Source: an uncultured Collinsella sp. (lineage in GTDB: Bacteria > Actinomycetota > Coriobacteriia > Coriobacteriales > Coriobacteriaceae). From it: 64,000 nucleotides of DNA. The notes beneath the pieces were generated by a model. The model saw nothing but the letters and a program-made list of their open reading frames with translations. It was not told the origin of the DNA and searched no databases. Within the stretch, counting starts at the first letter, position 1. Every line of letters starts with the position of its first letter. The stretch is taken from assembly GCA_905212545.1 (NCBI GenBank), contig CAJMEW010000001.1:21345-85344 (forward strand), given 5' to 3'. Positions 24,673-62,993 of this stretch are shown here, in pieces. Both the position numbers and the translations under genes were made by a program.

Positions 24673-25353
24673 CTATTTCCTGAATGCCGCGCGCACAAAG
24701 CGCTGAGCGAACAGCTTATTAGCGATGTTGATGACATGGCCCAAGAACAGCGCCGAGATGGCGGTGGTCACGCCAAAGCCGCCCAGGTTGTGCATGAGCG
24801 CGAGCGACAGAACGAGAGACACGGCGACATGCGAGCAGTCGAACACGACTTTTACGTCGCCAAAGCGGCGTTTAATCTTTTCGGCAATGACCTGCACCAG
24901 GCCGTCGGGCGCGTTGGGGACAACGCCCATGTTGACGACGAGACTTACGCCAAATGCAGTGACAGCGAGGGAGAGCAGCATGGTCTCAACCTGTATGGGG
25001 AGTACTGCGGGATGCAGCGGGTTGACCGCCGTGAAGAAGTCGGTGAAGCCGCCGATGAGCGTTGAGAAGCACAGCTCGAGCAGGATGCGCGGCTGGAACT
25101 CGCTTCGCAAGATGGCTAATTGCGCCACGATGTAGGCGACGTAGGCCGCGGTGATCCAAAAGCCGAGCGTCTTGCCCTTGAGCATGGATAGGGTTGTGGC
25201 AAAGCACGTGAGCGCGACGACGCCCAGGCCGGATGCCGTCTGGAGACTCATACCGAGTGCCAGTACTGCAACGCCCACCAGATACATCAGCATCCCGATG
25301 ACGATATGGAACCAATCGATCTTCTCGCCATTCATGATGATGAGCGGTCGCAT
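24673..25353 (-). CDS. YczE/YyaS/YitT-family integral membrane protein
   Basis: 226 aa, 5-6 TM helices, family-like composition. Function unknown. Confidence 0.55.
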   Translation of the reverse strand: MRPLIIMNGEKIDWFHIVIGMLMYLVGVAVLALGMSLQTASGLGVVALTCFATTLSMLKGKTLGFWITAAYVAYIVAQLAILRSEFQPRILLELCFSTLIGGFTDFFTAVNPLHPAVLPIQVETMLLSLAVTAFGVSLVVNMGVVPNAPDGLVQVIAEKIKRRFGDVKVVFDCSHVAVSLVLSLALMHNLGGFGVTTAISALFLGHVINIANKLFAQRFVRAAFRK

Positions 25354-25407
25354 GTTGCTACCCGTCCTTTCGGTTGTGTGAAAAAACTGACCCGGACCGG
25401 CAAAAGA

Positions 25408-25495
25408 GGGTTATCGGAGGCACTGCTGTTAAAGCAGAAAAGCCGGCCCCACGGTCAGTTGTCTAGGAAGTGTCTCGCTGTGCCGGAATGGGACT
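25408..25495. repeat. Family-5 conserved leader element, copy A (GGTTATCGGAGGCACTGCT ... CCGGC ... CCGGAATGGGACTG)
   Basis: The 19-mer and 14-mer are identical to those at 29736-29830, with similar spacing. Lies in the 5' region of the minus-strand yitT-like gene. Confidence 0.75.
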
Positions 25496-25538
25496 GAAGG
25501 GCCAGCGAGACGGGAGGAAAGCAAATGACATTGCGTGG

Positions 25539-25625
25539 GCAATAGGATGCCAAGATGGTAGGGTGCGTCTTAGCATCCTATTGCTCACGCTCGACGAAAT
25601 CGGTTTCGTTTGAGCCTTAGTATAC
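25539..25625. promoter_or_regulatory. Family-4 module, copy A: hairpin (12-bp stem GCAATAGGATGC, 22-nt loop CAAGATGGTAGGGTGCGTCTTA), LacI-type box CGAAATCGGTTTCG (25595-25608), then TAGTATAC
   Basis: Same architecture and loop sequence as 31004-31110, but with an unrelated compensatory stem. Confidence 0.75.
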
Positions 25626-25662
25626 GCACGGGATTCTATTTGCAAAGAGAAAAACAATAAAA

Positions 25663-25677
25663 AGTGAACGTTCACCT
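25663..25677. promoter_or_regulatory. LacI-type operator AGTGAACGTTCACCT (box 3, same as uxaC operators)
   Basis: 12-bp core GTGAACGTTCAC identical to 3884-3895 and 3922-3933. Lies 165 bp upstream of the HIT-gntP2 operon. Confidence 0.6.
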
Positions 25678-25709
25678 AATCGTAACAACTCGTTGGCTGT
25701 ATCATGGCG

Positions 25710-25743
25710 GTAGTCGATACGAAACCGATTTCGTATCGACTAC
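25710..25743. promoter_or_regulatory. 34-bp near-perfect palindrome GTAGTCGATA-CGAAACCGATTTCG-TATCGACTAC (KdgR-type box with extended arms)
   Basis: The core 14-mer is the reverse complement of the CGAAATCGGTTTCG boxes at 25595 and 31079. Lies 98 bp upstream of the HIT start. Confidence 0.65.
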
Positions 25744-25840
25744 GCATGCGTTGTATCTGTCCATTATCTGGTGGTGTAAACGAGGGGTTACACCTGCCGC
25801 AAAAGCGGCATTCATCATTGTCCAGATTGAAAGGATCACC

Positions 25841-26275
25841 ATGGAACAGCATACCGATTGCTCGTACTGCATGTGCGGGACCGACAACACGCTCGTCGAT
25901 GCCTTTGGCATCCCCATGCTTGACCTGCCTGCCAGCAAGCTCATCTTGTTTAAGGAGCAGAGTCATAAGGGCCGCGTAATCGTGGCCTCCAAGCAGCACG
26001 TCGATGACATCTCCTGCATGTCCGAGGAAGACGCCGCCGCCTTTATGGCCGATGTCCGCCACGTCGCGGCAGCGCTGCACAAGGCGTTCAATCCCGACAA
26101 GATTAACTTTGGTGCCTACGGCGACACCATGCATCACCTGCACGTGCATATCGTCCCCAAGCACAAGGACGACCCGTTTGAGTTTGGCGACGTGTTTGCC
26201 ATGAACCCCGGTCGCGTCACGCTCGAGTCGGCTCAGTACGACGAGATCGCCCAGGCAATTGTCGCCAACCTGTAA
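25841..26275 (+). CDS. HIT-family (histidine triad) protein
   Basis: 144 aa with a HHLHVHIVPK histidine triad. AAAGGA RBS before ATG 25841. Confidence 0.8.
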   Translation: MEQHTDCSYCMCGTDNTLVDAFGIPMLDLPASKLILFKEQSHKGRVIVASKQHVDDISCMSEEDAAAFMADVRHVAAALHKAFNPDKINFGAYGDTMHHLHVHIVPKHKDDPFEFGDVFAMNPGRVTLESAQYDEIAQAIVANL

Positions 26276-26342
26276 GCGAGTAAAAGCGGCTATTTCGAAT
26301 AGAAGCACTTGGCTTCATTGCCAGTTAAAAAGGAGCTTATCT

Positions 26343-27677
26343 ATGAATGCGGGAGTTGTTTCACTCCTTTGGGTGCTGGTGGGCGTAGTCCTGCTGGTCG
26401 CCATGATCGTTAAGTTTAAAATCAACAGCATCATTGCGCTTATTCTTTCCGCCATTTTTATCGCCCTTGCCGACGGCATCTCTGTGGGCGACCTTGTCAC
26501 CACCATGGAAGATGGACTGGGCGGAACGCTTAAGTCGCTTGCGCTGATCATTATCTTTGGCGCAGCCATCGGAAAACTGATGACCGATTCGGGTGCCTCG
26601 CAGCAGATTGCCGACACTATCGTTGACAAGCTCGGTATTAAGCTGCTGCCTGTTGCGCTTCTGATCATCGGCGTTATCTTTGGTATGAGCATGTTCTACG
26701 AGGTGGCGTTCCTTATCGTTACGCCGCTCGTTATCAGCATCGCCAAAGAGGCCGACATCCCCTATATGCGCCTGATTATCCCGGCTGTTTCTGGTACCAC
26801 GATGGGCCATTCTCTTTTTCCGCCGCAGCCTGGTCCTATGGCGCTGGTGAGTGCCTTTGGTGCCGAGGTTCCGCCGGTCTACATCTTCGGTCTGATCGTC
26901 ACGATTCCGACACTTATCTGCTCTGGTCTTTTGCTGTGCCATTTCATCCCCGGTCTCGATGACATGCCGCTTGGCAATGTTATGAAGCCGGCGGAGCGCA
27001 GGCCCGCGGACGAGCTTCCGCCGTTCTGGCTTTCCATTCTGGTGCCGCTGTTCCCGGCAATCATCATGATTGGGGCTTCGATTATCAAGAACACGGTGGG
27101 CGAGGGTTGCTTTGCATACGATCTTGCCAGCTGCATCGGTAGCGCAGATATCACTATGCTCATCACGATGATTCTTGCCATGGTTGCGTATGGTTATACG
27201 CGCGGCATGGATGGCGGAGAGATCTCTAGCTCTATGTCCGATGCTATCAAGGGCGTCGCGAACGTGCTGCTCGTTATCGGTGCCGGCGGCATCATGAAGC
27301 AGGTCATCATTACTTCTGGCGTTGGCGCGACGCTTGCCGACATGGTGAGCCTCATGCCGGTGTCGCCGCTGATTTTGGCTTGGGTGATCACGGTGGTCCT
27401 GCGCCTACTCACCGGCCAGGGTACCGTCTCGGCCATCACCGCCGCCGGCGTCGTGGCGCCTATGGTTACGCAGTTTGGCATCAACCCGGTGCTTGCAGTA
27501 CTGGTCTGCGCCTGCGCATCCAATACCATCACGCCTATGTATGACGGCGGCTACCTGCTGTTCCAGCAGTCGTTTGGCCTGTCGATGAAGGATACCTATA
27601 AGACATGGGGCCTGTTGGAGCTCGTCAACTCCGTTGTCGGCCTCATCATGGTTCTAATCCTGAGCCTGTTTATCTAG
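26343..27677 (+). CDS. GntP-family permease (second copy)
   Basis: 444 aa. N-terminus LLWVLVGVVLLVAMIVKFKINSIIALILSAIFIALADG is paralogous to 14729-16090. AAAAGGAG RBS. Confidence 0.85.
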   Translation: MNAGVVSLLWVLVGVVLLVAMIVKFKINSIIALILSAIFIALADGISVGDLVTTMEDGLGGTLKSLALIIIFGAAIGKLMTDSGASQQIADTIVDKLGIKLLPVALLIIGVIFGMSMFYEVAFLIVTPLVISIAKEADIPYMRLIIPAVSGTTMGHSLFPPQPGPMALVSAFGAEVPPVYIFGLIVTIPTLICSGLLLCHFIPGLDDMPLGNVMKPAERRPADELPPFWLSILVPLFPAIIMIGASIIKNTVGEGCFAYDLASCIGSADITMLITMILAMVAYGYTRGMDGGEISSSMSDAIKGVANVLLVIGAGGIMKQVIITSGVGATLADMVSLMPVSPLILAWVITVVLRLLTGQGTVSAITAAGVVAPMVTQFGINPVLAVLVCACASNTITPMYDGGYLLFQQSFGLSMKDTYKTWGLLELVNSVVGLIMVLILSLFI

Positions 27678-27783
27678 GCGAGAAACGCATAAGACAAGCG
27701 TGTCTCACCGCAAGCCCGCGGACAGTTGCCTATCAAACTGTCCGCGGGCCTTTGCTTTTAATACCACCGCCATGTCGCACCCG

Positions 27784-27870
27784 CCCCCCCCATAAGTTGC
27801 GGTGGAATTGTCCCTGTTTTTGCTGCTTACGGCTTTTAGCAGGAACTATTCCACCGCAACTTATGGGGGG
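27784..27870. repeat. Family-1 hairpin repeat, copy 2 (CCCCCCCATAAGTTGCGGTGGAAT ... ATTCCACCGCAACTTATGGGGGG)
   Basis: Perfect 24-bp inverted arms including C7/G6 clamps, 39-nt loop. Lies between gntP2 and gntR2. Confidence 0.85.
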
Positions 27871-27933
27871 ACGGGGGATGCGATAGTATTGCATGGTGGT
27901 ATTCGACTAACCGAGGGTTTATCCGAGGGCTTT

Positions 27934-28626
27934 ATGGAACAGCACCAGCATTATCAGAGCCTGCAAGACCAGGCGTACAACGCATTGCGGTCCAAGATCA
28001 TCTATGCCGAGCTCAAGCCCGGCACGCGCCTTTCGGCGATTGGTCTGGAAAAAGAGACGGGAATCGGGCGCACGCCCATTCGCGAGTCCTTTGTGCGTCT
28101 GCGCGAGCAGGAGCTGGTGGAAACGCGTCCCAAAAGCGGTACCTATGTCTCAAAAATCAGCATGGAGCGTGCCGAGAACGCCTGTTTCTTGCGCGAGAAA
28201 CTCGAGAGAAGCGTACTCATTAAATGCTGTTCTGCCGCCACGCCCGAACAAAAGCATCGGCTCGAGCAGATTCTTGCCGAGTCCGAGTCGCTCGACCATA
28301 GCGAAACGCGTCGCTTTTTCGATCTGGACAACCTGTTCCATGAGACATGTTTTGAGATTGCCGGTCGTCACATGTTGTGGGATTGGATGAAGAGCATCAA
28401 CACGCATTTTGAGCGATACAACTGGTTGCGTATGGTGTCGCAGGATCTGGATTGGGAGCCGATTCGTCGGCAGCATCGCCGGATTCTCGAGGCCATTAAG
28501 AGGGGCGATACCGACGCGGCGAGCTATCTGGCAGAGACGCACCTGCACCTGATGCCCGAAGAGCAGGGCCCGGTTATCGCCTTGCATCCCGACTATTTTG
28601 AGCTGTCCAAAGACTCGGCCATCTAA
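27934..28626 (+). CDS. GntR-family (FadR/FCD subfamily) transcriptional regulator (second copy)
   Basis: wHTH (LQDQAYNALRSKIIYAELKPGTRLSAIGLEKETGIGRTPIRESFVRL) plus FCD domain. 230 aa. GAGGGC RBS. Confidence 0.8.
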   Translation: MEQHQHYQSLQDQAYNALRSKIIYAELKPGTRLSAIGLEKETGIGRTPIRESFVRLREQELVETRPKSGTYVSKISMERAENACFLREKLERSVLIKCCSAATPEQKHRLEQILAESESLDHSETRRFFDLDNLFHETCFEIAGRHMLWDWMKSINTHFERYNWLRMVSQDLDWEPIRRQHRRILEAIKRGDTDAASYLAETHLHLMPEEQGPVIALHPDYFELSKDSAI

Positions 28627-28641
28627 CTCGTCCCCTTCATT

Positions 28642-28708
28642 AGTTGCGGTGAAATAGGGATTGTTTTGCGGCTCTGATGGTGTAAACAGTCCGTATCTCA
28701 CCGCAACT
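28642..28708. repeat. Family-1 hairpin repeat, copy 3 (AGTTGCGGTGAAATA ... TATCTCACCGCAACT)
   Basis: 15-bp arms with one mismatch, 37-nt loop. Lies 16 bp after the gntR2 stop. Confidence 0.8.
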
Positions 28709-28734
28709 GCCGGGGTACTATCGGGGCACAAAAA

Positions 28735-28806
28735 AGCTGCGGCGCCGCTTGGAGGAAAAGACCGGAAGCAAGGGTCCATTCCTCCAGACGGCGCCGCAGC
28801 TGTTTT
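28735..28806. repeat. Nested compound hairpin (outer AGCTGCGGCGCCG/CGGCGCCGCAGCT, inner TGGAGGAA/TTCCTCCA) with T-tail
   Basis: 13-bp perfect outer stem enclosing an 8-bp inner stem-loop, followed by GTTTTGG. Confidence 0.6.
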
Positions 28807-28965
28807 GGTGGCTCGGCTTTTGTCGAAGTGTCTCAGTTGAGCGCGGTTGCCAGCCGAGTAGGCAAAGCGGCTCGGGGGCGTGTCGCTTCCGTCACGTTCT
28901 ATCAGCATACAAGACGGTTTTGGTTCTTGTTCGTGACGGAAACGGCGCGCTTCCGAGCCGCTTTA

Positions 28966-29003
28966 AAAGAAAGGGGGCGAGGTCTAGGGCACGCCCCCTT
29001 TCA
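28966..29003. terminator. Terminator downstream of eda (minus strand)
   Basis: AAAGGGGGCG-aggtctagg-GCACGCCCCCTTT. Confidence 0.6.
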
Positions 29004-29019
29004 CGATAGAGAGCTAAAC

Positions 29020-29661
29020 CTAGTCGCGGACCTTCTTGACGACGTCCATGGCCTCGCGGGCGATCTGCTCGACCTTGGAGAAGTCGCCGTCGGCAAACAG
29101 GGCCGGCTTGACCATCCAGGTGCCACCGCAGGCGATGATGGCGGAGGAGCTCAGGTACTCCTCGACGTTGGCGGCGCTCACGCCGCCAGTGGGCATAAAG
29201 CGGTGACCGACAAACGGAGCTGCGAGGGCCTTGATGGTGTTCAGGCCGCCATACTGGGACGCGGGGAAGAACTTGGTGACCTTGAGGCCCAGGTTCTCGG
29301 CTGCGGTGACCTCGGAGGGGGTCACGGTGCCGGGAAGGACAGGCAGGTCGATGTCGATGCAGTGCTTCACGACGTCCTCGTTGTAACCCGGGGAGACGAT
29401 GAACTTGGCACCGGCTGCGCGGCCCTGCTCAACCTGCTCGACGGTCAGGACGGTGCCGGCGCCAACGCACATCTCGGGCTCGGCCTCGGCCATAGCGGCG
29501 ATGCACTCGGCGGCGCAGGCGGTGCGGAAGGTGACCTCGGCGGACTTCATGCCAGCTGCCATAAGGGCGTGGGCGAGCGGAGCAGCGTCCTCGACTTTGT
29601 CGAGCACGACGACCGGCACGATACCCAGGGACTCAAGCGTGGTGTAGAACTGATCGAACAT
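29020..29661 (-). CDS. eda: 2-dehydro-3-deoxyphosphogluconate (KDPG) aldolase / KHG aldolase
   Basis: GIVPVVVLD, active-site region GAGTVL, KFFPA..GG motifs. 213 aa. ATG 29661 with AAAGGA RBS. Confidence 0.85.
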   Translation of the reverse strand: MFDQFYTTLESLGIVPVVVLDKVEDAAPLAHALMAAGMKSAEVTFRTACAAECIAAMAEAEPEMCVGAGTVLTVEQVEQGRAAGAKFIVSPGYNEDVVKHCIDIDLPVLPGTVTPSEVTAAENLGLKVTKFFPASQYGGLNTIKALAAPFVGHRFMPTGGVSAANVEEYLSSSAIIACGGTWMVKPALFADGDFSKVEQIAREAMDVVKKVRD

Positions 29662-29735
29662 AATGTTCCTTTCGATGTATGGCGCGCATAGGCGCGTGAT
29701 TGCCAAATATGCTGGTCAGGAGCCGATTTTGGATT

Positions 29736-29830
29736 GGTTATCGGAGGCACTGCTTGGGGTTCAAGCAATTCCAAAACCGGCTGCTCGACCAGTCGTGTAG
29801 GGAATGCCAGACAAAACCGGAATGGGACTG
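29736..29830. repeat. Family-5 conserved leader element, copy B (between kdgK and eda)
   Basis: GGTTATCGGAGGCACTGCT at 29736-29754 and CCGGAATGGGACTG at 29817-29830, matching 25408-25495. Confidence 0.75.
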
Positions 29831-29914
29831 GTGGTTTTGCCCGGCCGGAGGAATCGGGGAGCGGGCCGCAGGGGTATGGGATTGGAAAGCTGCGGCCCGC
29901 GGAATGGAGACGGA

Positions 29915-30952
29915 CTAGCGCGCGACGCGGGTGCCACCGTCGGCGGCGGATGCCACGGCTGCGATCTCGTCTGCGGTCACCAAGTTGGAATCGCCCTTGA
30001 TGGTGAGCTTGAGGATCGAGGCTGCAATCGCGTAGTTGACGGCGTCCTGCGGGTCAAAGTCGTTGATGAGGGCATGGACGAAGCCGGCGTTGAAAGCGTC
30101 GCCGGCGGCAACGCCCTCGAGCACGTGCACATCGTGAGCAGGGGAGAACCAGTACTCGCCGCTCTCGGCGTCAAAGAGCATGCCCATCCAGATGGAGCGC
30201 TCGACGCAAGAGATGTTGCGGACGACCGAGGCGACCTTTTTGCAGCCGTACTCGGCGCAGATCTGACGGGCCATCTCGACGTAGGTGTCGCGCTCCTCGA
30301 TGCCATGGGCAAGGGAACCAGAGACGCAGGTCATGCCGAGGCCGGCGGGCGCATCCTCGTCGTTGGCGATGCAGATGTCGACGAGCGGCAGGAGTTCTTT
30401 CATGGTGGCCTGCGACTTCTCGGGCGACCACATCTTGCCGCGATAGTTCACGTCGCACACGGTGGTGATGCCCTTGGCGCGGCAGGCGGCGAGTGCCTCC
30501 TTGCAGGCGGCGGCCATCTCATCGGAGACGGCGGGGGTCACGCCGGAGAAATAGAAGACATCGATGCCCTTGAGGATCTCGTCCCAGTCAAAGACGTCGC
30601 GTTTGGCCATGTTGATGGCAGAGAACTTGCGGTCGTAGACGCAGCCGTTGCCGCGCTGCGAGGCGCCGACCTCAAACACATAGGAGCCAAGACGGTCGCC
30701 CTGACGCACGACGCGCGTTGTGTCGACGCCGTAGGCCTTCAGCGAGCGCAGCGCGCACTCGCCTAGGCGGTTGGCCGGGACAACGGAGACGTAAGCGGCC
30801 TTGTCGCCTTGGTAAGCCAGGGAAAGCGCGGTGTTTGCCTCGGCGCCGCCGTAGCGGACGTCAAACTCGGTTGCCTGCTCAATGCGCAGATGATCTTTGG
30901 GCGAGAGCCTCATCATGATTTCGCCGAAGGTAAGAACCGTTTTACCCATGGT
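29915..30952 (-). CDS. kdgK: 2-dehydro-3-deoxygluconokinase (PfkB family)
   Basis: N-terminal GEIMMRLSP and GGAEANTALSLA, C-terminal GAGDAFNAGF. 345 aa from ATG 30952. Confidence 0.85.
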   Translation of the reverse strand, partial: TMGKTVLTFGEIMMRLSPKDHLRIEQATEFDVRYGGAEANTALSLAYQGDKAAYVSVVPANRLGECALRSLKAYGVDTTRVVRQGDRLGSYVFEVGASQRGNGCVYDRKFSAINMAKRDVFDWDEILKGIDVFYFSGVTPAVSDEMAAACKEALAACRAKGITTVCDVNYRGKMWSPEKSQATMKELLPLVDICIANDEDAPAGLGMTCVSGSLAHGIEERDTYVEMARQICAEYGCKKVASVVRNISCVERSIWMGMLFDAESGEYWFSPAHDVHVLEGVAAGDAFNAGFVHALINDFDPQDAVNYAIAASILKLTIKGDSNLVTADEIAAVASAADGGTRVAR

Positions 30953-31003
30953 CGCGCAGCTCCTTCTTGCTCGTGCGTACACCTTTGATATGGCGTTGGC
31001 GCG

Positions 31004-31110
31004 GAGGTGCCAAGACGGTAGGGTACATCTTTGCACCTCCGCGCCAACGCTTGCCGAAATCGGTTTACGAAATCGGTTTCGTTTCGAGTTGTAGTATACT
31101 CACCTACAAC
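31004..31110. promoter_or_regulatory. Family-4 module, copy B: hairpin (18-bp stem GCGTTGGCGCGGAGGTGC, loop CAAGACGGTAGGGTACATCTTT), tandem boxes CGAAATCGGTTTACG / CGAAATCGGTTTCG (31066-31092), then TAGTATAC
   Basis: Divergent region between kdgK and the KdgR-like gene. Loop and boxes match copy A; stems are compensatory. Confidence 0.75.
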
Positions 31111-31184
31111 GTTTTGCAAGCGAGATTTTTAAAAAAATGCCTAAAATGGCTCAGACTGCTGACAATTGGGAAACGGGGTGCGCC

Positions 31185-32207
31185 ATGGCGCAGATGAGAA
31201 TCAAGGACATTGCCGCCGAGGCGGGCGTGAGCCCGGCCACGGTCTCGCGCTATCTCAACAACCGCCCCGGGCAGATGACCGAGGAAACCCGCGCTCGCAT
31301 CGCGGCGGTTATCGAGCGCACCGGCTATCGCCCACGTGCTGCCGCGCGCAATCTGCGCAGCTCGCGCACCAACCTCATCGGCGTGATCCTGGCCGACATC
31401 GCCAACCCGTTCTCCAGCGCTATGCTCGAGGACCTTTCCGCCAGCGCCGCCGCGCGCGGCTGCTCGCTCATGACGGCCATTAGCGGCAACGATCCCGCCA
31501 AGGAGGCCGAGTCGCTCACCAGACTTATCGATGCCGGCGTGGACGGCCTGGTCGTCAACACCTGCGGAGGCAATGACGAGGCGATCGCCGCGGCAGCGGG
31601 ACGTCTGCCCGTCGTGCTGCTCGACCGCGACGTTGCCGACGGCGGTGTCGATCTGGTGACATCTAACAACCGTGAGCTGGTCGCCGGCTTGGTAGACGCC
31701 TTGGCAGCTGCGGGCAGCGAGCGTCTGTGCCTGCTCACCGAGGCAAGCGACGATAGCCCCGTGCGTCGAGAGCGCGCCGAGGCCTTTGCCGACGAGCTTT
31801 CGCGCCGCGGCCTTGCGGGCGAGGTCGTCACCCTGGCCGACGGTGGCGCCACGGGCGTTGGCCGTTTGGACAAGACCATCCGCGACTACGCGGGCAAAAG
31901 GCTCGGCCTTATCGCCGTCAACGGCCTGGTTTTCCTGCGTCTGACCGAGGCGCTGGCGCAGCTTGGTCCCTCGCTGCCGGCGGGGCTCAAGATCGCGACG
32001 TTTGACGACTACCCCTGGAACCATGTGCTCTTTGGCGGCGTCACCACGGCCGCGCAGGACACCCTCACCATTGCCGAGCGCGTAGTCGAGCGCCTTTCCG
32101 AGCGCATCGACGTCGTTACCACCACCGTGGGCGAGGCCGCAAAGCTGGCGCCCAAACGCATCGAGATCCCCGGCCACATCGAACACCGCGCCTCGACCTC
32201 GCGCTAG
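31185..32207 (+). CDS. LacI-family transcriptional regulator, KdgR-like (candidate repressor of kdgK-eda)
   Basis: HTH_LacI (MRIKDIAAEAGVSPATVSRYLNN) plus a sugar-binding domain. Divergent from kdgK. Its own promoter carries the CGAAATCGGTTTCG boxes. Confidence 0.8.
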   Translation: MAQMRIKDIAAEAGVSPATVSRYLNNRPGQMTEETRARIAAVIERTGYRPRAAARNLRSSRTNLIGVILADIANPFSSAMLEDLSASAAARGCSLMTAISGNDPAKEAESLTRLIDAGVDGLVVNTCGGNDEAIAAAAGRLPVVLLDRDVADGGVDLVTSNNRELVAGLVDALAAAGSERLCLLTEASDDSPVRRERAEAFADELSRRGLAGEVVTLADGGATGVGRLDKTIRDYAGKRLGLIAVNGLVFLRLTEALAQLGPSLPAGLKIATFDDYPWNHVLFGGVTTAAQDTLTIAERVVERLSERIDVVTTTVGEAAKLAPKRIEIPGHIEHRASTSR

Positions 32208-47723: not shown

Positions 47724-47765
47724 GGGCGCTTTGGTCCTTCTACGGGGCGCTGCGGCAGGCAAACT

Positions 47766-47822
47766 ATCACAACATTCGACGTTTTTTGCCAAAATCGGGA
47801 AAAGCATCGAATGTTGTGATGG
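47766..47822. repeat. Family-3 palindromic repeat (ATCACAACATTCGA ... TCGAATGTTGTGAT), copy 1
   Basis: 14-bp perfect arms with a 27-nt A/T-rich spacer. Copies at 51870 and 62925. Confidence 0.8.
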
Positions 47823-47957
47823 TTTGTATGCTGAGGATGGGCTTGGGAAGCCGTTCTTGCTCGCAAAGGCCTTTCGTGTCGTACGTATGTCGACCCATTC
47901 TTCCCGTGCGGTACTATATTCCCCGAAGAATAAAGGCCAGCGCGAGGGGAGGGCTGC

Positions 47958-50372: not shown

Positions 50373-50410
50373 CCACCACAAAGGGGACAGGCACCTTTGT
50401 GGTGGTTTTT
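50373..50410 (+). terminator. Family-2 terminator hairpin CCACCACAAAGGGG-acaggc-ACCTTTGTGGTGG plus T5
   Basis: Same sequence family as 34397. Confidence 0.7.
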
Positions 50411-51866: not shown

Positions 51867-51869
51867 AAA

Positions 51870-51928
51870 CCATCACAACATTCAGCGAAAATCGCGATTT
51901 TGCCGAAAAACGTCGAATGTTGTGATGG
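51870..51928. repeat. Family-3 palindromic repeat, copy 2
   Basis: CCATCACAACATTCagcGAAAATCGCGATTTTgccgaaaaacgTCGAATGTTGTGATGG. Confidence 0.8.
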
Positions 51929-51963
51929 TTTGCGCTCCGGACTAGGCCATCCTGCGAGTTCGG

Positions 51964-52000
51964 CCACCACAAAGGGGCCAGGCTCCTTTGTGGTGGTTTT
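51964..52000 (+). terminator. Family-2 terminator hairpin CCACCACAAAGGGG-ccaggc-TCCTTTGTGGTGG plus T4
   Basis: Same family. Follows Family-3 copy 2. Confidence 0.7.
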
Positions 52001-52967: not shown

Positions 52968-53414
52968 TTTGGGCGAATTGATGCCTACAATCTGCGCGCA
53001 AATACAAATATGGTTGTCTGAACATTACGCTTCTAACCACCGATGAGTTAAAGATATTCTCATCAGTTTGGTAGGGTATTCCTCCCGGTAAATGACCTAC
53101 TGCTCACGGTCGATTTCGACCGTTCGCAGGATGTTTGCTCTTGAGCAAAATGTTGTGCAAATAAATTAAATGCTATTAAAAAACTAATAACTAACTTAAT
53201 TACCAGTAGAAACAGATATTTTATAGCGAATAAACGAAAGTAAATCTGAGTAAATGTCAAGAGAATTGAGAATTCGCTAAAAACTATCGGTATTTTTGCT
53301 TAGATGTTCAAACAATCGTTACAATATGTACTACAAGCGTGCGCAATTACAGATTGCGCAGATACGTTTGATAGTGAAAGAGCAAGATCGCGGTCTCTTG
53401 GGGAGGAGACATCG

Positions 53415-62863: not shown

Positions 62864-62877
62864 GGCATCGTTTAGAA

Positions 62878-62910
62878 CCACCACAATGGGGACAGGCACC
62901 TTTGTGGTGG
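62878..62910. repeat. Family-2 hairpin CCACCACAATGGGG-acaggc-ACCTTTGTGGTGG (no T-tail)
   Basis: Same family. Immediately followed by Family-3 copy 3. Confidence 0.65.
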
Positions 62911-62924
62911 TCGGGACTTCCGAA

Positions 62925-62982
62925 CCATCACAACATTCGATGAAAATCGCGATTTTGGCGAAAAGCGTCGAATGTTGTGATG
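62925..62982. repeat. Family-3 palindromic repeat, copy 3
   Basis: CCATCACAACATTCGAtgAAAATCGCGATTTTggcgaaaagcgTCGAATGTTGTGATG. Confidence 0.8.
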
Positions 62983-62993
62983 CTTTTCGTTTC

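Follow-up and report, generated by a model that had tools for sequence, protein, structure and literature searches.

What might two gene leaders that share one long hairpin, in front of different genes, be using it for: an RNA structure, a DNA palindrome, or nothing at all? The question is raised by a stretch of 64,000 nucleotides from an uncultured Collinsella sp. (contig CAJMEW010000001.1, positions 21,345 to 85,344), hereafter called the window, with positions counted from its first letter. One hairpin lies in the 5' untranslated region (5' UTR) of kdgK, at the head of a kdgK-eda operon (the K-type leader), and the other lies in that of a gene encoding a DUF6198 membrane protein (the D-type leader). 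A second conserved element, Family 5, directly precedes eda in the one case and the DUF6198 gene in the other. Judged by sequence comparison, the hairpin and Family 5 are a real, selected and duplicated leader module, and the pair of RNA motifs is new to Rfam and confined to one genus and two gene contexts. As to function, we give an even chance to the reading that the hairpin is a static RNA element of the 5' UTR whose C-rich loop is offered to a trans-acting factor and which acts jointly with Family 5 at the post-transcriptional level.

First, the anatomy of the two hairpins was analyzed. The K-type hairpin (30993-31050, minus strand) has a perfect outer stem of 18 bp, a 1x1 A·G mismatch and an inner stem of 5 bp (AAGAU/GUCUU) that closes the 10-nt loop GUACCCUACC. 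The D-type hairpin (25533-25590, minus strand) also has an 18-bp outer stem, followed by a U·G pair at the junction, the inner stem AAGA/UCUU and the loop GCACCCUACC. The general build is therefore an 18-bp outer stem, one junction position, an inner 5-bp stem AAGAY/RUCUU and a 10-nt loop reading GYACCCUACC on the mRNA strand; the helix comprises 24 positions and at most 23 standard pairs. As inverted repeats with arms of 23 nt, the K and D hairpins are the second and fourth longest in the window, the arms being 96% complementary in K (30993-31015/31028-31050) and 91% in D (25533-25555/25568-25590). The folding energies were -48.2 kcal/mol (z -10.7) for K and -37.0 kcal/mol (z -9.4) for D. The minimum-free-energy and centroid folds both showed the hairpin as an isolated domain without competing pairing, and a hairpin of this stability (-37 to -48 kcal/mol) is expected to form at once and to be unable to switch between folds.

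A first-pass annotation of the window had already reported both hairpins, and they were found in the two leaders with the same architecture, each 3' of a promoter and a LacI-type operator. Several details of that description had to be revised. The 22-nt sequence described as a loop is not all unpaired, and contains a further 5-bp helix (AAGAY/RTCTT) closing the 10-nt loop. The D stem, given as 12 bp, extends over 18 bp (25533-25550/25573-25590) with one A·C mismatch, and its counterparts in other genomes are perfect over 15-19 bp. The two stems, GCGTTGGCGCGGAGGTGC and GCGTGAGCAATAGGATGC, had been called completely different, without any sequence similarity; they are identical at 11 of 18 positions and are therefore homologous, so that this wording was too strong, whereas the covariation itself stood, with all 7 differing positions compensated on the opposite arm. 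The 21-nt loop pattern CAAGAYGGTAGGGTRCRTCTT has exactly two matches in the window, at 25551-25571 and 31011-31031, where about 0.01 would be expected by chance. A third occurrence, placed at 53081, proved to be a bare 9-mer at 53071-53079 without a stem, which is at chance level (an estimated 0.5 or so such 9-mers are expected in 128 kb, both strands counted), and a covariance-model search of the 64-kb window returned the two copies and no third.

Next, the distribution of the hairpin was investigated by a scan for the loop pattern, in which one genome was taken per species and an exact match to the loop was required. More than 119 loci were recovered, all from Collinsella or gut metagenome-assembled genomes. 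Every one was of the K type or the D type, with at most two copies per genome and always at the same two loci, which agrees with the earlier view that the hairpin is not a mobile-element copy. A dispersed repeat of the REP or MITE kind was accordingly rejected, since the loci fall into two orthologous contexts only and the window holds two copies. REP/BIME elements are likewise perfect or imperfect palindromes in intergenic or intercistronic RNA; however, their stems are conserved and their dispersed copies number in the tens to hundreds, whereas the Collinsella hairpin occurs in two copies per genome, each at its fixed locus, and conserves the loop while the stems vary.

An alignment of 48 distinct sequences of 64 nt was compared with 500 column shuffles. 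The data showed that 93.3% of the cells pair in the hairpin, against 84.0 ± 0.6% in the shuffles, and that the covariation score was 0.277 against 0.122; none of the 500 shuffles reached the observed value in either measure. Ten of the 24 pairs have changed on both sides, and sliding the partner strand by 1-3 columns lowered the pairing to 32-42%. Single examples can be read directly from the haplotypes. The two major K haplotypes differ by a compensated change of G-C to C-G (GGAGG/CCTCC versus GCAGG/CCTGC), and the K allele of the window differs from most others by a compensated G-C to A-U (GCGCGG/CCGCGC versus GCACGG/CCGTGC). The diverged copies L001, L137, L136 and L146, whose downstream flanks have also diverged, add further compensated pairs and keep the 20-nt inner stem and loop AAGAY…RTCTT within the allowed Y/R variation; beyond this variation only the unpaired junction base differs, in L001 and L137. 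Between the window paralogues, 18 of 22 positions are identical in the loop region against 11 of 18 in the stems, and the other K haplotype shows a single difference from D in the 20-nt loop core. The first-pass annotation had proposed a comparison with related genomes, and the homologous Collinsella leaders do keep the loop and show compensatory changes in the stem. Compensatory substitution across homologues, the generic mark of a structured RNA, was found both in the hairpin and in Family 5.

Several observations weigh against the reading of the hairpin as an RNA whose loop is recognized. About a third of the K-type loci carry one or two stem mismatches, often in arms of hybrid haplotype. 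The search required an exact loop, which builds in part of the apparent invariance of the loop, and rare single substitutions, as well as one deletion of 1 nt, were seen among loops sampled without this bias. In the C. aerofaciens group conservation is about 95% over the entire leader and the loop does not rise above that background, so that a test of loop conservation is powerless there. The argument for constraint on the loop therefore comes from the comparison of the paralogues and from a few diverged orthologues. The loop also differs in sequence in two sister lineages (L127 and L153, below) and is in this sense lineage-specific, and no trans-acting partner was found. Finally, the mismatches of the outer stem comprise 16 G·U and 15 A·C, which gives no strand signal and fits a DNA palindrome equally well. 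Since, in addition, the two strands of both window copies fold equally well, the covariation of the hairpin cannot decide between an RNA and a cruciform.

The same two features lend some support to an element acting at the DNA level, that is, a cruciform or long inverted repeat bound by a protein such as the GntR/FCD or LacI regulator, both encoded nearby, which would modulate the adjacent promoter; the inner AAGAC-N10-GTCTT also resembles a site for a dimer. However, the conserved core GYACCCTACC is asymmetric, and the arms vary freely as long as they pair, which is the opposite of what a DNA-binding dimer that reads sequence would need. The element moreover lies 3' of the promoter, inside the predicted transcribed leader. 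The sister lineages L127/L150 (kdgK 86% identical) and L153/L154 (85%) have a different, imperfect hairpin at the same leader position, with the outer arms GGUUGC/GCAACC or GGUUAC/GUGACC; in L127 the inner stem is AAGG/CCUU and the 10-nt loop is pyrimidine-rich. These positional homologues are stable only as sense-strand RNA: L127 gave -30.0 kcal/mol (z = -4.1) for the sense and -21.9 kcal/mol (z = -1.1) for the antisense strand, and L153 gave -22.9 kcal/mol (z = -3.5) and -8.7 kcal/mol (z = +1.0), respectively. We regard an element acting as DNA as very unlikely. Action as RNA on the kdgK-sense strand is favoured, by indirect arguments: the position of the hairpin on the coding strand between the conserved promoter-operator region and the Shine-Dalgarno sequence (SD), its co-orientation with Family 5, and the sense-only folds of the sister lineages.

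The mismatches bear on a further alternative, in which the hairpin is a functionless palindromic insertion carried along by duplication, its symmetry being kept by template-switch (quasipalindrome) correction and inter-arm recombination. Mismatches without strand bias would fit such a relic, as would the restriction of the hairpin to some lineages, close outgroups regulating the same operon without it. Recombination within the palindrome is also suggested by hybrid K-type hairpins in L021, L039, L054, L085, L107 and others, in which a left arm GGAGG faces a right arm CCTGC and the mismatches fall exactly at the covarying positions. Such hybrids point either to a recombination event that crossed over in the loop or to intermediate steps of compensatory evolution; one or two mismatches in a helix of 24 positions are evidently tolerated. 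In L053 (2300-2360 of that locus, CAJJZM010000013.1) the D hairpin is rearranged, the operator being followed by an inverted loop and then the right arm, with the left arm missing; this may reflect either recombination within the palindrome or an assembly artefact. Against a neutral relic, both paralogues have kept the hairpin in many species clusters, where 10 positions are compensated and indels have not eroded it, the loop is kept in diverged orthologues whose flanks have changed, and the hairpin co-occurs with Family 5, itself a selected RNA. The probability that the hairpin is without function is, in our estimate, low, and equal to that of the DNA-level element.

Family 5 was then analyzed. 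The 19-mer GGTTATCGGAGGCACTGCT occurs exactly twice in the window, at 25409 and 29736, where 0.02 would be expected, so the second element named in the first-pass annotation exists in both copies; it is larger than had been described, at about 133-144 nt. The K copy (29712-29855, minus strand) occupies the kdgK-eda intergenic region and consists of a helix P1 with the loop CAGUCCCAUUCC, a junction with UUCCCUACACGAC, and a long helix P2 that encloses P3 (UUGCUU...AAGCAG) and the strand UGCCUCCGAUAACC. The D copy (25388-25520, minus strand) lies between the hairpin and the start codon of the DUF6198 gene and is followed after P2 by a U6 run (25382-25387). The structure was predicted with RNAalifold from 16 representatives less than 93% identical and compared with 500 shuffles. 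P1 has 12 bp and a conserved loop (Y)AGUCCCAUUCC(GG), the junction contains UUCCYWNAYGAC, P3 is UGCUU...AAGCA, and UGCCUCCGAUAACC is an invariant single strand in the multiloop of P2. Fourteen of the 25 predicted pairs have changed on both sides and 95.7% of the cells pair; none of the 500 shuffles reached the observed values. About 33 G·U pairs stand against about 5 A·C, so that Family 5, unlike the hairpin, is clearly an RNA of the kdgK-sense strand. The outer part of P2 was left out of the formal count of pairs because MAFFT offsets its 3' strand by one column, and by eye it covaries as CUGACC/GGUCAG, CUGGUC/GACCAG, CUGGCC/GGCCA and CAGGCC/GGCCUG, and in L127 as GGGACGGUUCCG/CGGAACCUCCC. 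At all loci Family 5 stands directly 5' of eda or the DUF6198 gene only. This includes a metagenome scan for variants other than the common C. aerofaciens ones, which added further eda and DUF6198 contexts and 7 chance matches in unrelated environmental contigs. A pseudoknot between CAGUC of the P1 loop and GACUG was considered and rejected; GACUG falls in part within P2 and is kept in neither L001 nor L127.

The anatomy of Family 5, with variable helices, invariant unpaired segments, aptamer-like conserved junctions and a multi-helix fold, raises the question of whether a sugar-acid metabolite, such as 2-keto-3-deoxygluconate (KDG), its 6-phosphate (KDPG) or pyruvate, is sensed in the manner of a riboswitch by the hairpin together with Family 5, which would thereby control eda and DUF6198. 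The position of Family 5 immediately 5' of the regulated coding sequence would suit a sensor of this kind, as would CCUCC within the invariant strand, which is anti-SD-like, and the end of the window D copy, where a GC-rich helix is followed by U6; having no match in Rfam, it would be a new class. However, the U-run after P2 is not conserved across species: elsewhere it reads CUUUUUC, ACAUUUCUCUUU or CCUAAUUUCUUAC, and the K copy lacks it. Among the loci compared there was no conserved alternative pairing, terminator or SD-sequestering fold. Two gene contexts in a single genus make it impossible to deduce a ligand, and in the K operon 1 kb separates Family 5 from the hairpin, whose stability is too great for a switch. 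A metabolite sensor is, in our view, quite unlikely.

A third structure was found in the K operon. Hairpin H1 (29861-29900, minus strand), taken from the minimum-free-energy fold, starts 15 nt 3' of the kdgK stop codon and has an 11-bp GC-rich stem with an 18-nt C-rich loop, CUUUCCAAUCCCAUACCC. It is conserved in K-type loci and missing from the D leader, and it resembles a 3' protector of the REP type. In other species its loop reads CCAUACCCAUACC. The 12-mer GUCUCCAUUCCG, 4 nt after the kdgK stop, nearly repeats the sequence AGUCCCAUUCCG of the Family 5 P1 loop. Similar C-rich single strands recur in the same transcripts, namely the H1 loop, the P1 loop AGUCCCAUUCC, CCCUAC in the junction and the strand GCCUCCGAUAACC.

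With H1 after its stop codon, the kdgK cistron is bracketed by hairpins, and this arrangement would suit a purely structural mRNA element, which is either processed by RNase III or blocks a 5'-to-3' exonuclease and so fixes a stable 5' end, and whose loop has no role in recognition. The 24 stacked positions of the leader hairpin make about two A-form turns, the length that is canonical for RNase III substrates. The extreme stability and static fold of the hairpin point the same way, and the sister lineages keep a hairpin at this position without keeping the loop sequence. What this account leaves unexplained is the asymmetric 10-nt loop, which is kept in the paralogues and in diverged orthologues while the stems drift and which stability alone would not constrain. 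The hairpin also begins about 35-40 nt from the predicted transcription start, unlike classical 5'-end stabilizers. The known stabilizers and RNase III stems (the ompA, ermC and rnc leaders, phage lambda N) share with it a long stable leader stem of about two turns that is independent of the SD; they lie, in contrast, within a few nucleotides of the 5' end, and their loops are not conserved. We consider a purely structural role unlikely, although the least so of the alternatives.

Other ways in which the hairpin could act in cis were also examined. An intrinsic terminator was rejected: the hairpins are followed by CAUAUCAAAGG and AAUGUCAUUUGC, which contain no U-run, and a terminator scan was empty at both. 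Pairing of the loop with the SD or start region of kdgK, eda or DUF6198, sought by eye, gave at most 4-5 bp and was not conserved. GGGUGC, 3 nt before the ATG of the LacI mRNA, would pair with the loop over 6-7 bp in the window, and was discarded because it is absent from L001, which keeps the hairpin. The loop is conserved and asymmetric, and no partner for it was found in cis. On the minus strand, the left arm of the window K hairpin (31004-31018) reads GGAGGUGCAAAGAUG, a perfect SD followed by AUG, and GGAGGTGCAAAGATG in this copy could open a 28-codon open reading frame running to UAA and overlapping the kdgK start (AUGGGUAA). A leader peptide was rejected; the ATG is ACG in the commonest haplotype, which makes the reading frame probably fortuitous, and the D copy reads in another frame.

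The history of the module was examined by comparing lineages according to the identity of kdgK. The window clade (at least 97% identity) and L001 (89%) have both the leader hairpin and Family 5. L127/L150 and L153/L154, at the identities given above, also have both, the hairpin being of different sequence. L128 (84%), L130 (83%), L003 (82%) and L005 (79%) have neither. The two elements are thus both present in four lineages and both absent in four, and both are present in L137, a diverged K-type locus from the metagenome scan. This joint presence and absence indicates that they appeared together in one sub-lineage and stayed together. The promoter and operator are still present in the hairpin-less L003, L005 and L130, and comparison with L005 shows the hairpin as about 58 nt cleanly inserted in the 5' UTR.

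The K and D control regions align in two blocks. The first runs from 5' of the -35 element through the operator and the hairpin to about 14 nt beyond it (75% column identity), and the second from TTCCTCC through Family 5 to the common SD context YCGAAAGGA (70%). On the minus strand the order in the K operon is -35, -10 TATACT, operator(s), hairpin, kdgK, H1, Family 5 and eda, and in the D leader, which ends at the DUF6198 gene, the order is the same except that kdgK and H1 are absent. The first-pass proposal that the DUF6198 leader is a copy of the kdgK-eda control region lacking kdgK was therefore borne out. Because kdgK and eda are also adjacent in outgroups, their adjacency is ancestral and the RNA elements would have been gained in the kdgK-eda operon first. 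The simplest history suggested by the alignment is that the control region was duplicated whole in front of DUF6198 and that kdgK and H1 were then lost.

The promoters predicted upstream of the two hairpins are nearly identical. The kdgK promoter (31093-31119, minus strand) has the -10 element TATACT (31098->31093) and the -35 element TTGCAA (31119->31114), or CTTGCA shifted by 1 nt. It was missed by the consensus scan because its spacer is 15-16 nt, and was read from the sequence instead. The DUF6198 promoter (25619-25646, minus strand), with -35 TTTGCA, a 16-nt spacer and -10 TATACT, was picked up by the scan with 9 of 12 consensus matches and aligns with the kdgK promoter. The element TAGTATAC, listed separately in the first-pass annotation, is the -10 hexamer TATACT of such a predicted minus-strand promoter. 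The arrangement TTGCNA...TATACT was also found in L001, L003, L127 and L130, and in most orthologous kdgK leaders examined the -10 element is conserved as (G)TATAC(T/A) after a -35 element resembling TTGCNA or TTGACA.

Just 3' of the kdgK -10 element lie two overlapping LacI-type operator boxes, CGAAATCGGTTTAC and CGAAATCGGTTTCG (31055-31081), and the DUF6198 promoter has one box, CGAAATCGGTTTCG (25595-25608). The box CGAAAYCGRTTTCG occurs exactly at 25595, 25720 and 31068 in the window, with an overlapping copy of two mismatches at 31055. The copy at 25720 falls within an extended palindrome, GTAGTCGATACGAAACCGATTTCGTATCGACTAC (25710-25743), which is the operator that faces HIT-gntP in this divergent region and was also found as an inverted repeat. 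The kdgK boxes are kept in orthologues whether or not these have the hairpin. Motifs of the LacI family are reported to be even palindromes centred on CG (PMC4052901). The box CGAAAYCGRTTTCG is such a palindrome, of 14 bp and with CG at its centre, and it adjoins the sugar-catabolic kdgK-eda promoter next to a divergent LacI-family gene, as in the LacI-type hexuronate/KDG operators of KdgR, UxuR and ExuR; this likeness covers the box only and not the hairpin, and the operator is predicted from sequence. The product of the divergent gene (31185-32207, plus strand) is presumed to be the repressor that binds these boxes. The gene is syntenic in most orthologous loci examined and is missing from L128/L129.

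These features can be combined into a mechanism for the preferred reading, that of a static RNA element with a recognized loop. The two promoters, both presumably repressed by the LacI-type (KdgR-like) regulator, would drive the kdgK-eda mRNA and the DUF6198 mRNA. Transcription would start a few bases past TATACT on the minus strand and run through the operator and then the hairpin. The rigid stem would present the 10-nt loop GYACCCUACC to a putative RNA-binding protein or G-rich RNA, and the hairpin would also shield the mRNA downstream. Family 5, directly before eda or DUF6198, would display the C-rich strands AGUCCCAUUCCGG, CCCUAC and UGCCUCCGAUAACC. Together the two elements may add control of stability, processing or translation on top of LacI-type repression. 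A G-rich partner RNA, if there is one, could be marked by conserved intergenic GGUAGGGURC or GGAAUGGGACU.

We also asked whether the hairpin or Family 5 belongs to a known family. The whole window gave no match at gathering thresholds to Rfam 15, which includes 6C, mini-ykkC, Collinsella-1 and the known riboswitches. Permissive Rfam scans of 25300-25800 and 29600-31200 gave only sub-threshold noise of the microRNA-precursor or snoRNA type, H1 scoring only as a generic hairpin. We found no paper describing the hairpin or Family 5, and the motif strings were absent from the first 200 of the 408 supplementary files of a human-microbiome catalogue of structured RNAs.

The guanidine-II (mini-ykkC) riboswitch and the ANTAR-target hairpins are likewise short cis-regulatory hairpins with a conserved loop and covarying stems that occur paired in leaders. 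However, in these RNAs short stems carry loops of 4-6 nt (ACGR tetraloops or A..G hexaloops), and the second hairpin is in competition with a terminator, whereas the Collinsella hairpin has a 10-nt C-rich loop on a static helix of 24 positions. The actinobacterial 6C RNA (RF01066) and RoxS/RsaE resemble it in having stable stems with C-rich apical loops in Gram-positive bacteria, high-GC in the case of 6C, and the C-rich loops of small RNAs of the 6C, RoxS and RsaE kind pair with G-rich sequences. In contrast, 6C is a free-standing small RNA that has a terminator of its own and two loops, each with 6 C or more, while the Collinsella hairpin lies inside mRNA leaders and has the single loop GYACCCUACC. 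Neither the guanidine-II/ANTAR class, nor 6C, nor the stabilizer/RNase III class fits, the defining features of each being absent.

The gene identities given in the first-pass annotation were confirmed. The gene for the DUF6198/YczE-like membrane protein (24673-25353, minus strand) lies directly 3' of the D copy of Family 5. On the plus strand follow the genes for a HIT protein (about 25841-26275), a GntP permease (26259-27677) and the GntR/FCD regulator (27802-28626). On the minus strand, eda (29020-29661), encoding an aldolase for KDPG and 2-keto-4-hydroxyglutarate (KHG), lies directly 3' of the K copy of Family 5, and kdgK, encoding a PfkB sugar kinase resembling KDG kinase (29915-30949), lies between the leader hairpin and Family 5. 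The relatives of the kdgK protein at 97-99% identity comprise thousands of member sequences, and the named matches are Coriobacteriaceae. In the hairpin-less relative L130 (6983-8989 of that locus), the gene directly 5' of DUF6198 encodes a pectate-lyase-22 (oligogalacturonide-lyase-like) protein; this is in keeping with a role in the same pathway and suggests that DUF6198 acts in the uptake or metabolism of pectin or hexuronates.

Some further elements were observed in and around these leaders. A palindromic box, GTGAACGTTCAC, of the cre/LacI kind lies at 25665-25676 between the promoters of DUF6198 and HIT; it is duplicated near 3.9 kb (3881-3896/3921-3936), recurs 5' of the LacI-kdgK region in sister lineages (L127 at about 3795, L128 at about 3836), and is probably the operator of another regulator. 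In L039, L012, L014, L063 and others, a conserved intergenic block a few kilobases from the D leader carries at least three operator-like boxes (AGACGTAAACGATTTTCGTCT..., TAAGACGTAAATTGCGCTTTCGTACG). The block was not located in the window; it probably controls a neighbouring sugar-acid operon that answers to a related LacI-type regulator. The HIT leader (25744-25840, plus strand) contains a 7-bp hairpin with a G-rich loop (GGUGUAA-ACGAGGGG-UUACACC), followed by a GC hairpin, UGCCGC-AAAA-GCGGCA, and this HIT-gntP structure may be an attenuator. The complementarity of its G-rich loop to the C-rich loops is 4 bp only. In the second half of the window, two families of long inverted repeats unrelated to the hairpin have three copies each, AAACCATCACAACATTCGA / TCGAATGTTGTGATGGTTT at 47755-47831, 51867-51931 and 62923-62985, and CCACCACAAAGG / CCTTTGTGGTGG at 50373-50405, 51964-51996 and 62877-62911.

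Collinsella aerofaciens and related species rank with the most abundant Actinobacteria of the gut, yet, to our knowledge, almost nothing is known about their post-transcriptional regulation. The locus offers a compact and testable case, in which paralogous leaders with the same promoter and operator carry a covarying hairpin with a fixed C-rich loop and a second, well-supported RNA of three helices. If the hairpin is only a stabilizer, the finding is an ordinary one, yet it still documents clean compensatory evolution in a duplicated control region. If a common factor reads the C-rich loops, a new RNA-protein or RNA-RNA layer would lie over hexuronate/KDG catabolism, and DUF6198 would be tied to the pathway. 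The boldest proposal, which we think unlikely, is that an undescribed RNA regulatory system, specific to Collinsella and its close relatives, has the hairpin as one half and Family 5 as the other, and is either a new riboswitch class for a metabolite of the sugar-acid pathway or a platform bound by an RNA-binding reader of C-rich loops (CCCUAC / UCCCAUUCC / CCUCCGAUAACC). If true, it would give the KDG regulon of an abundant human gut actinobacterium a second layer of control, at the level of RNA.

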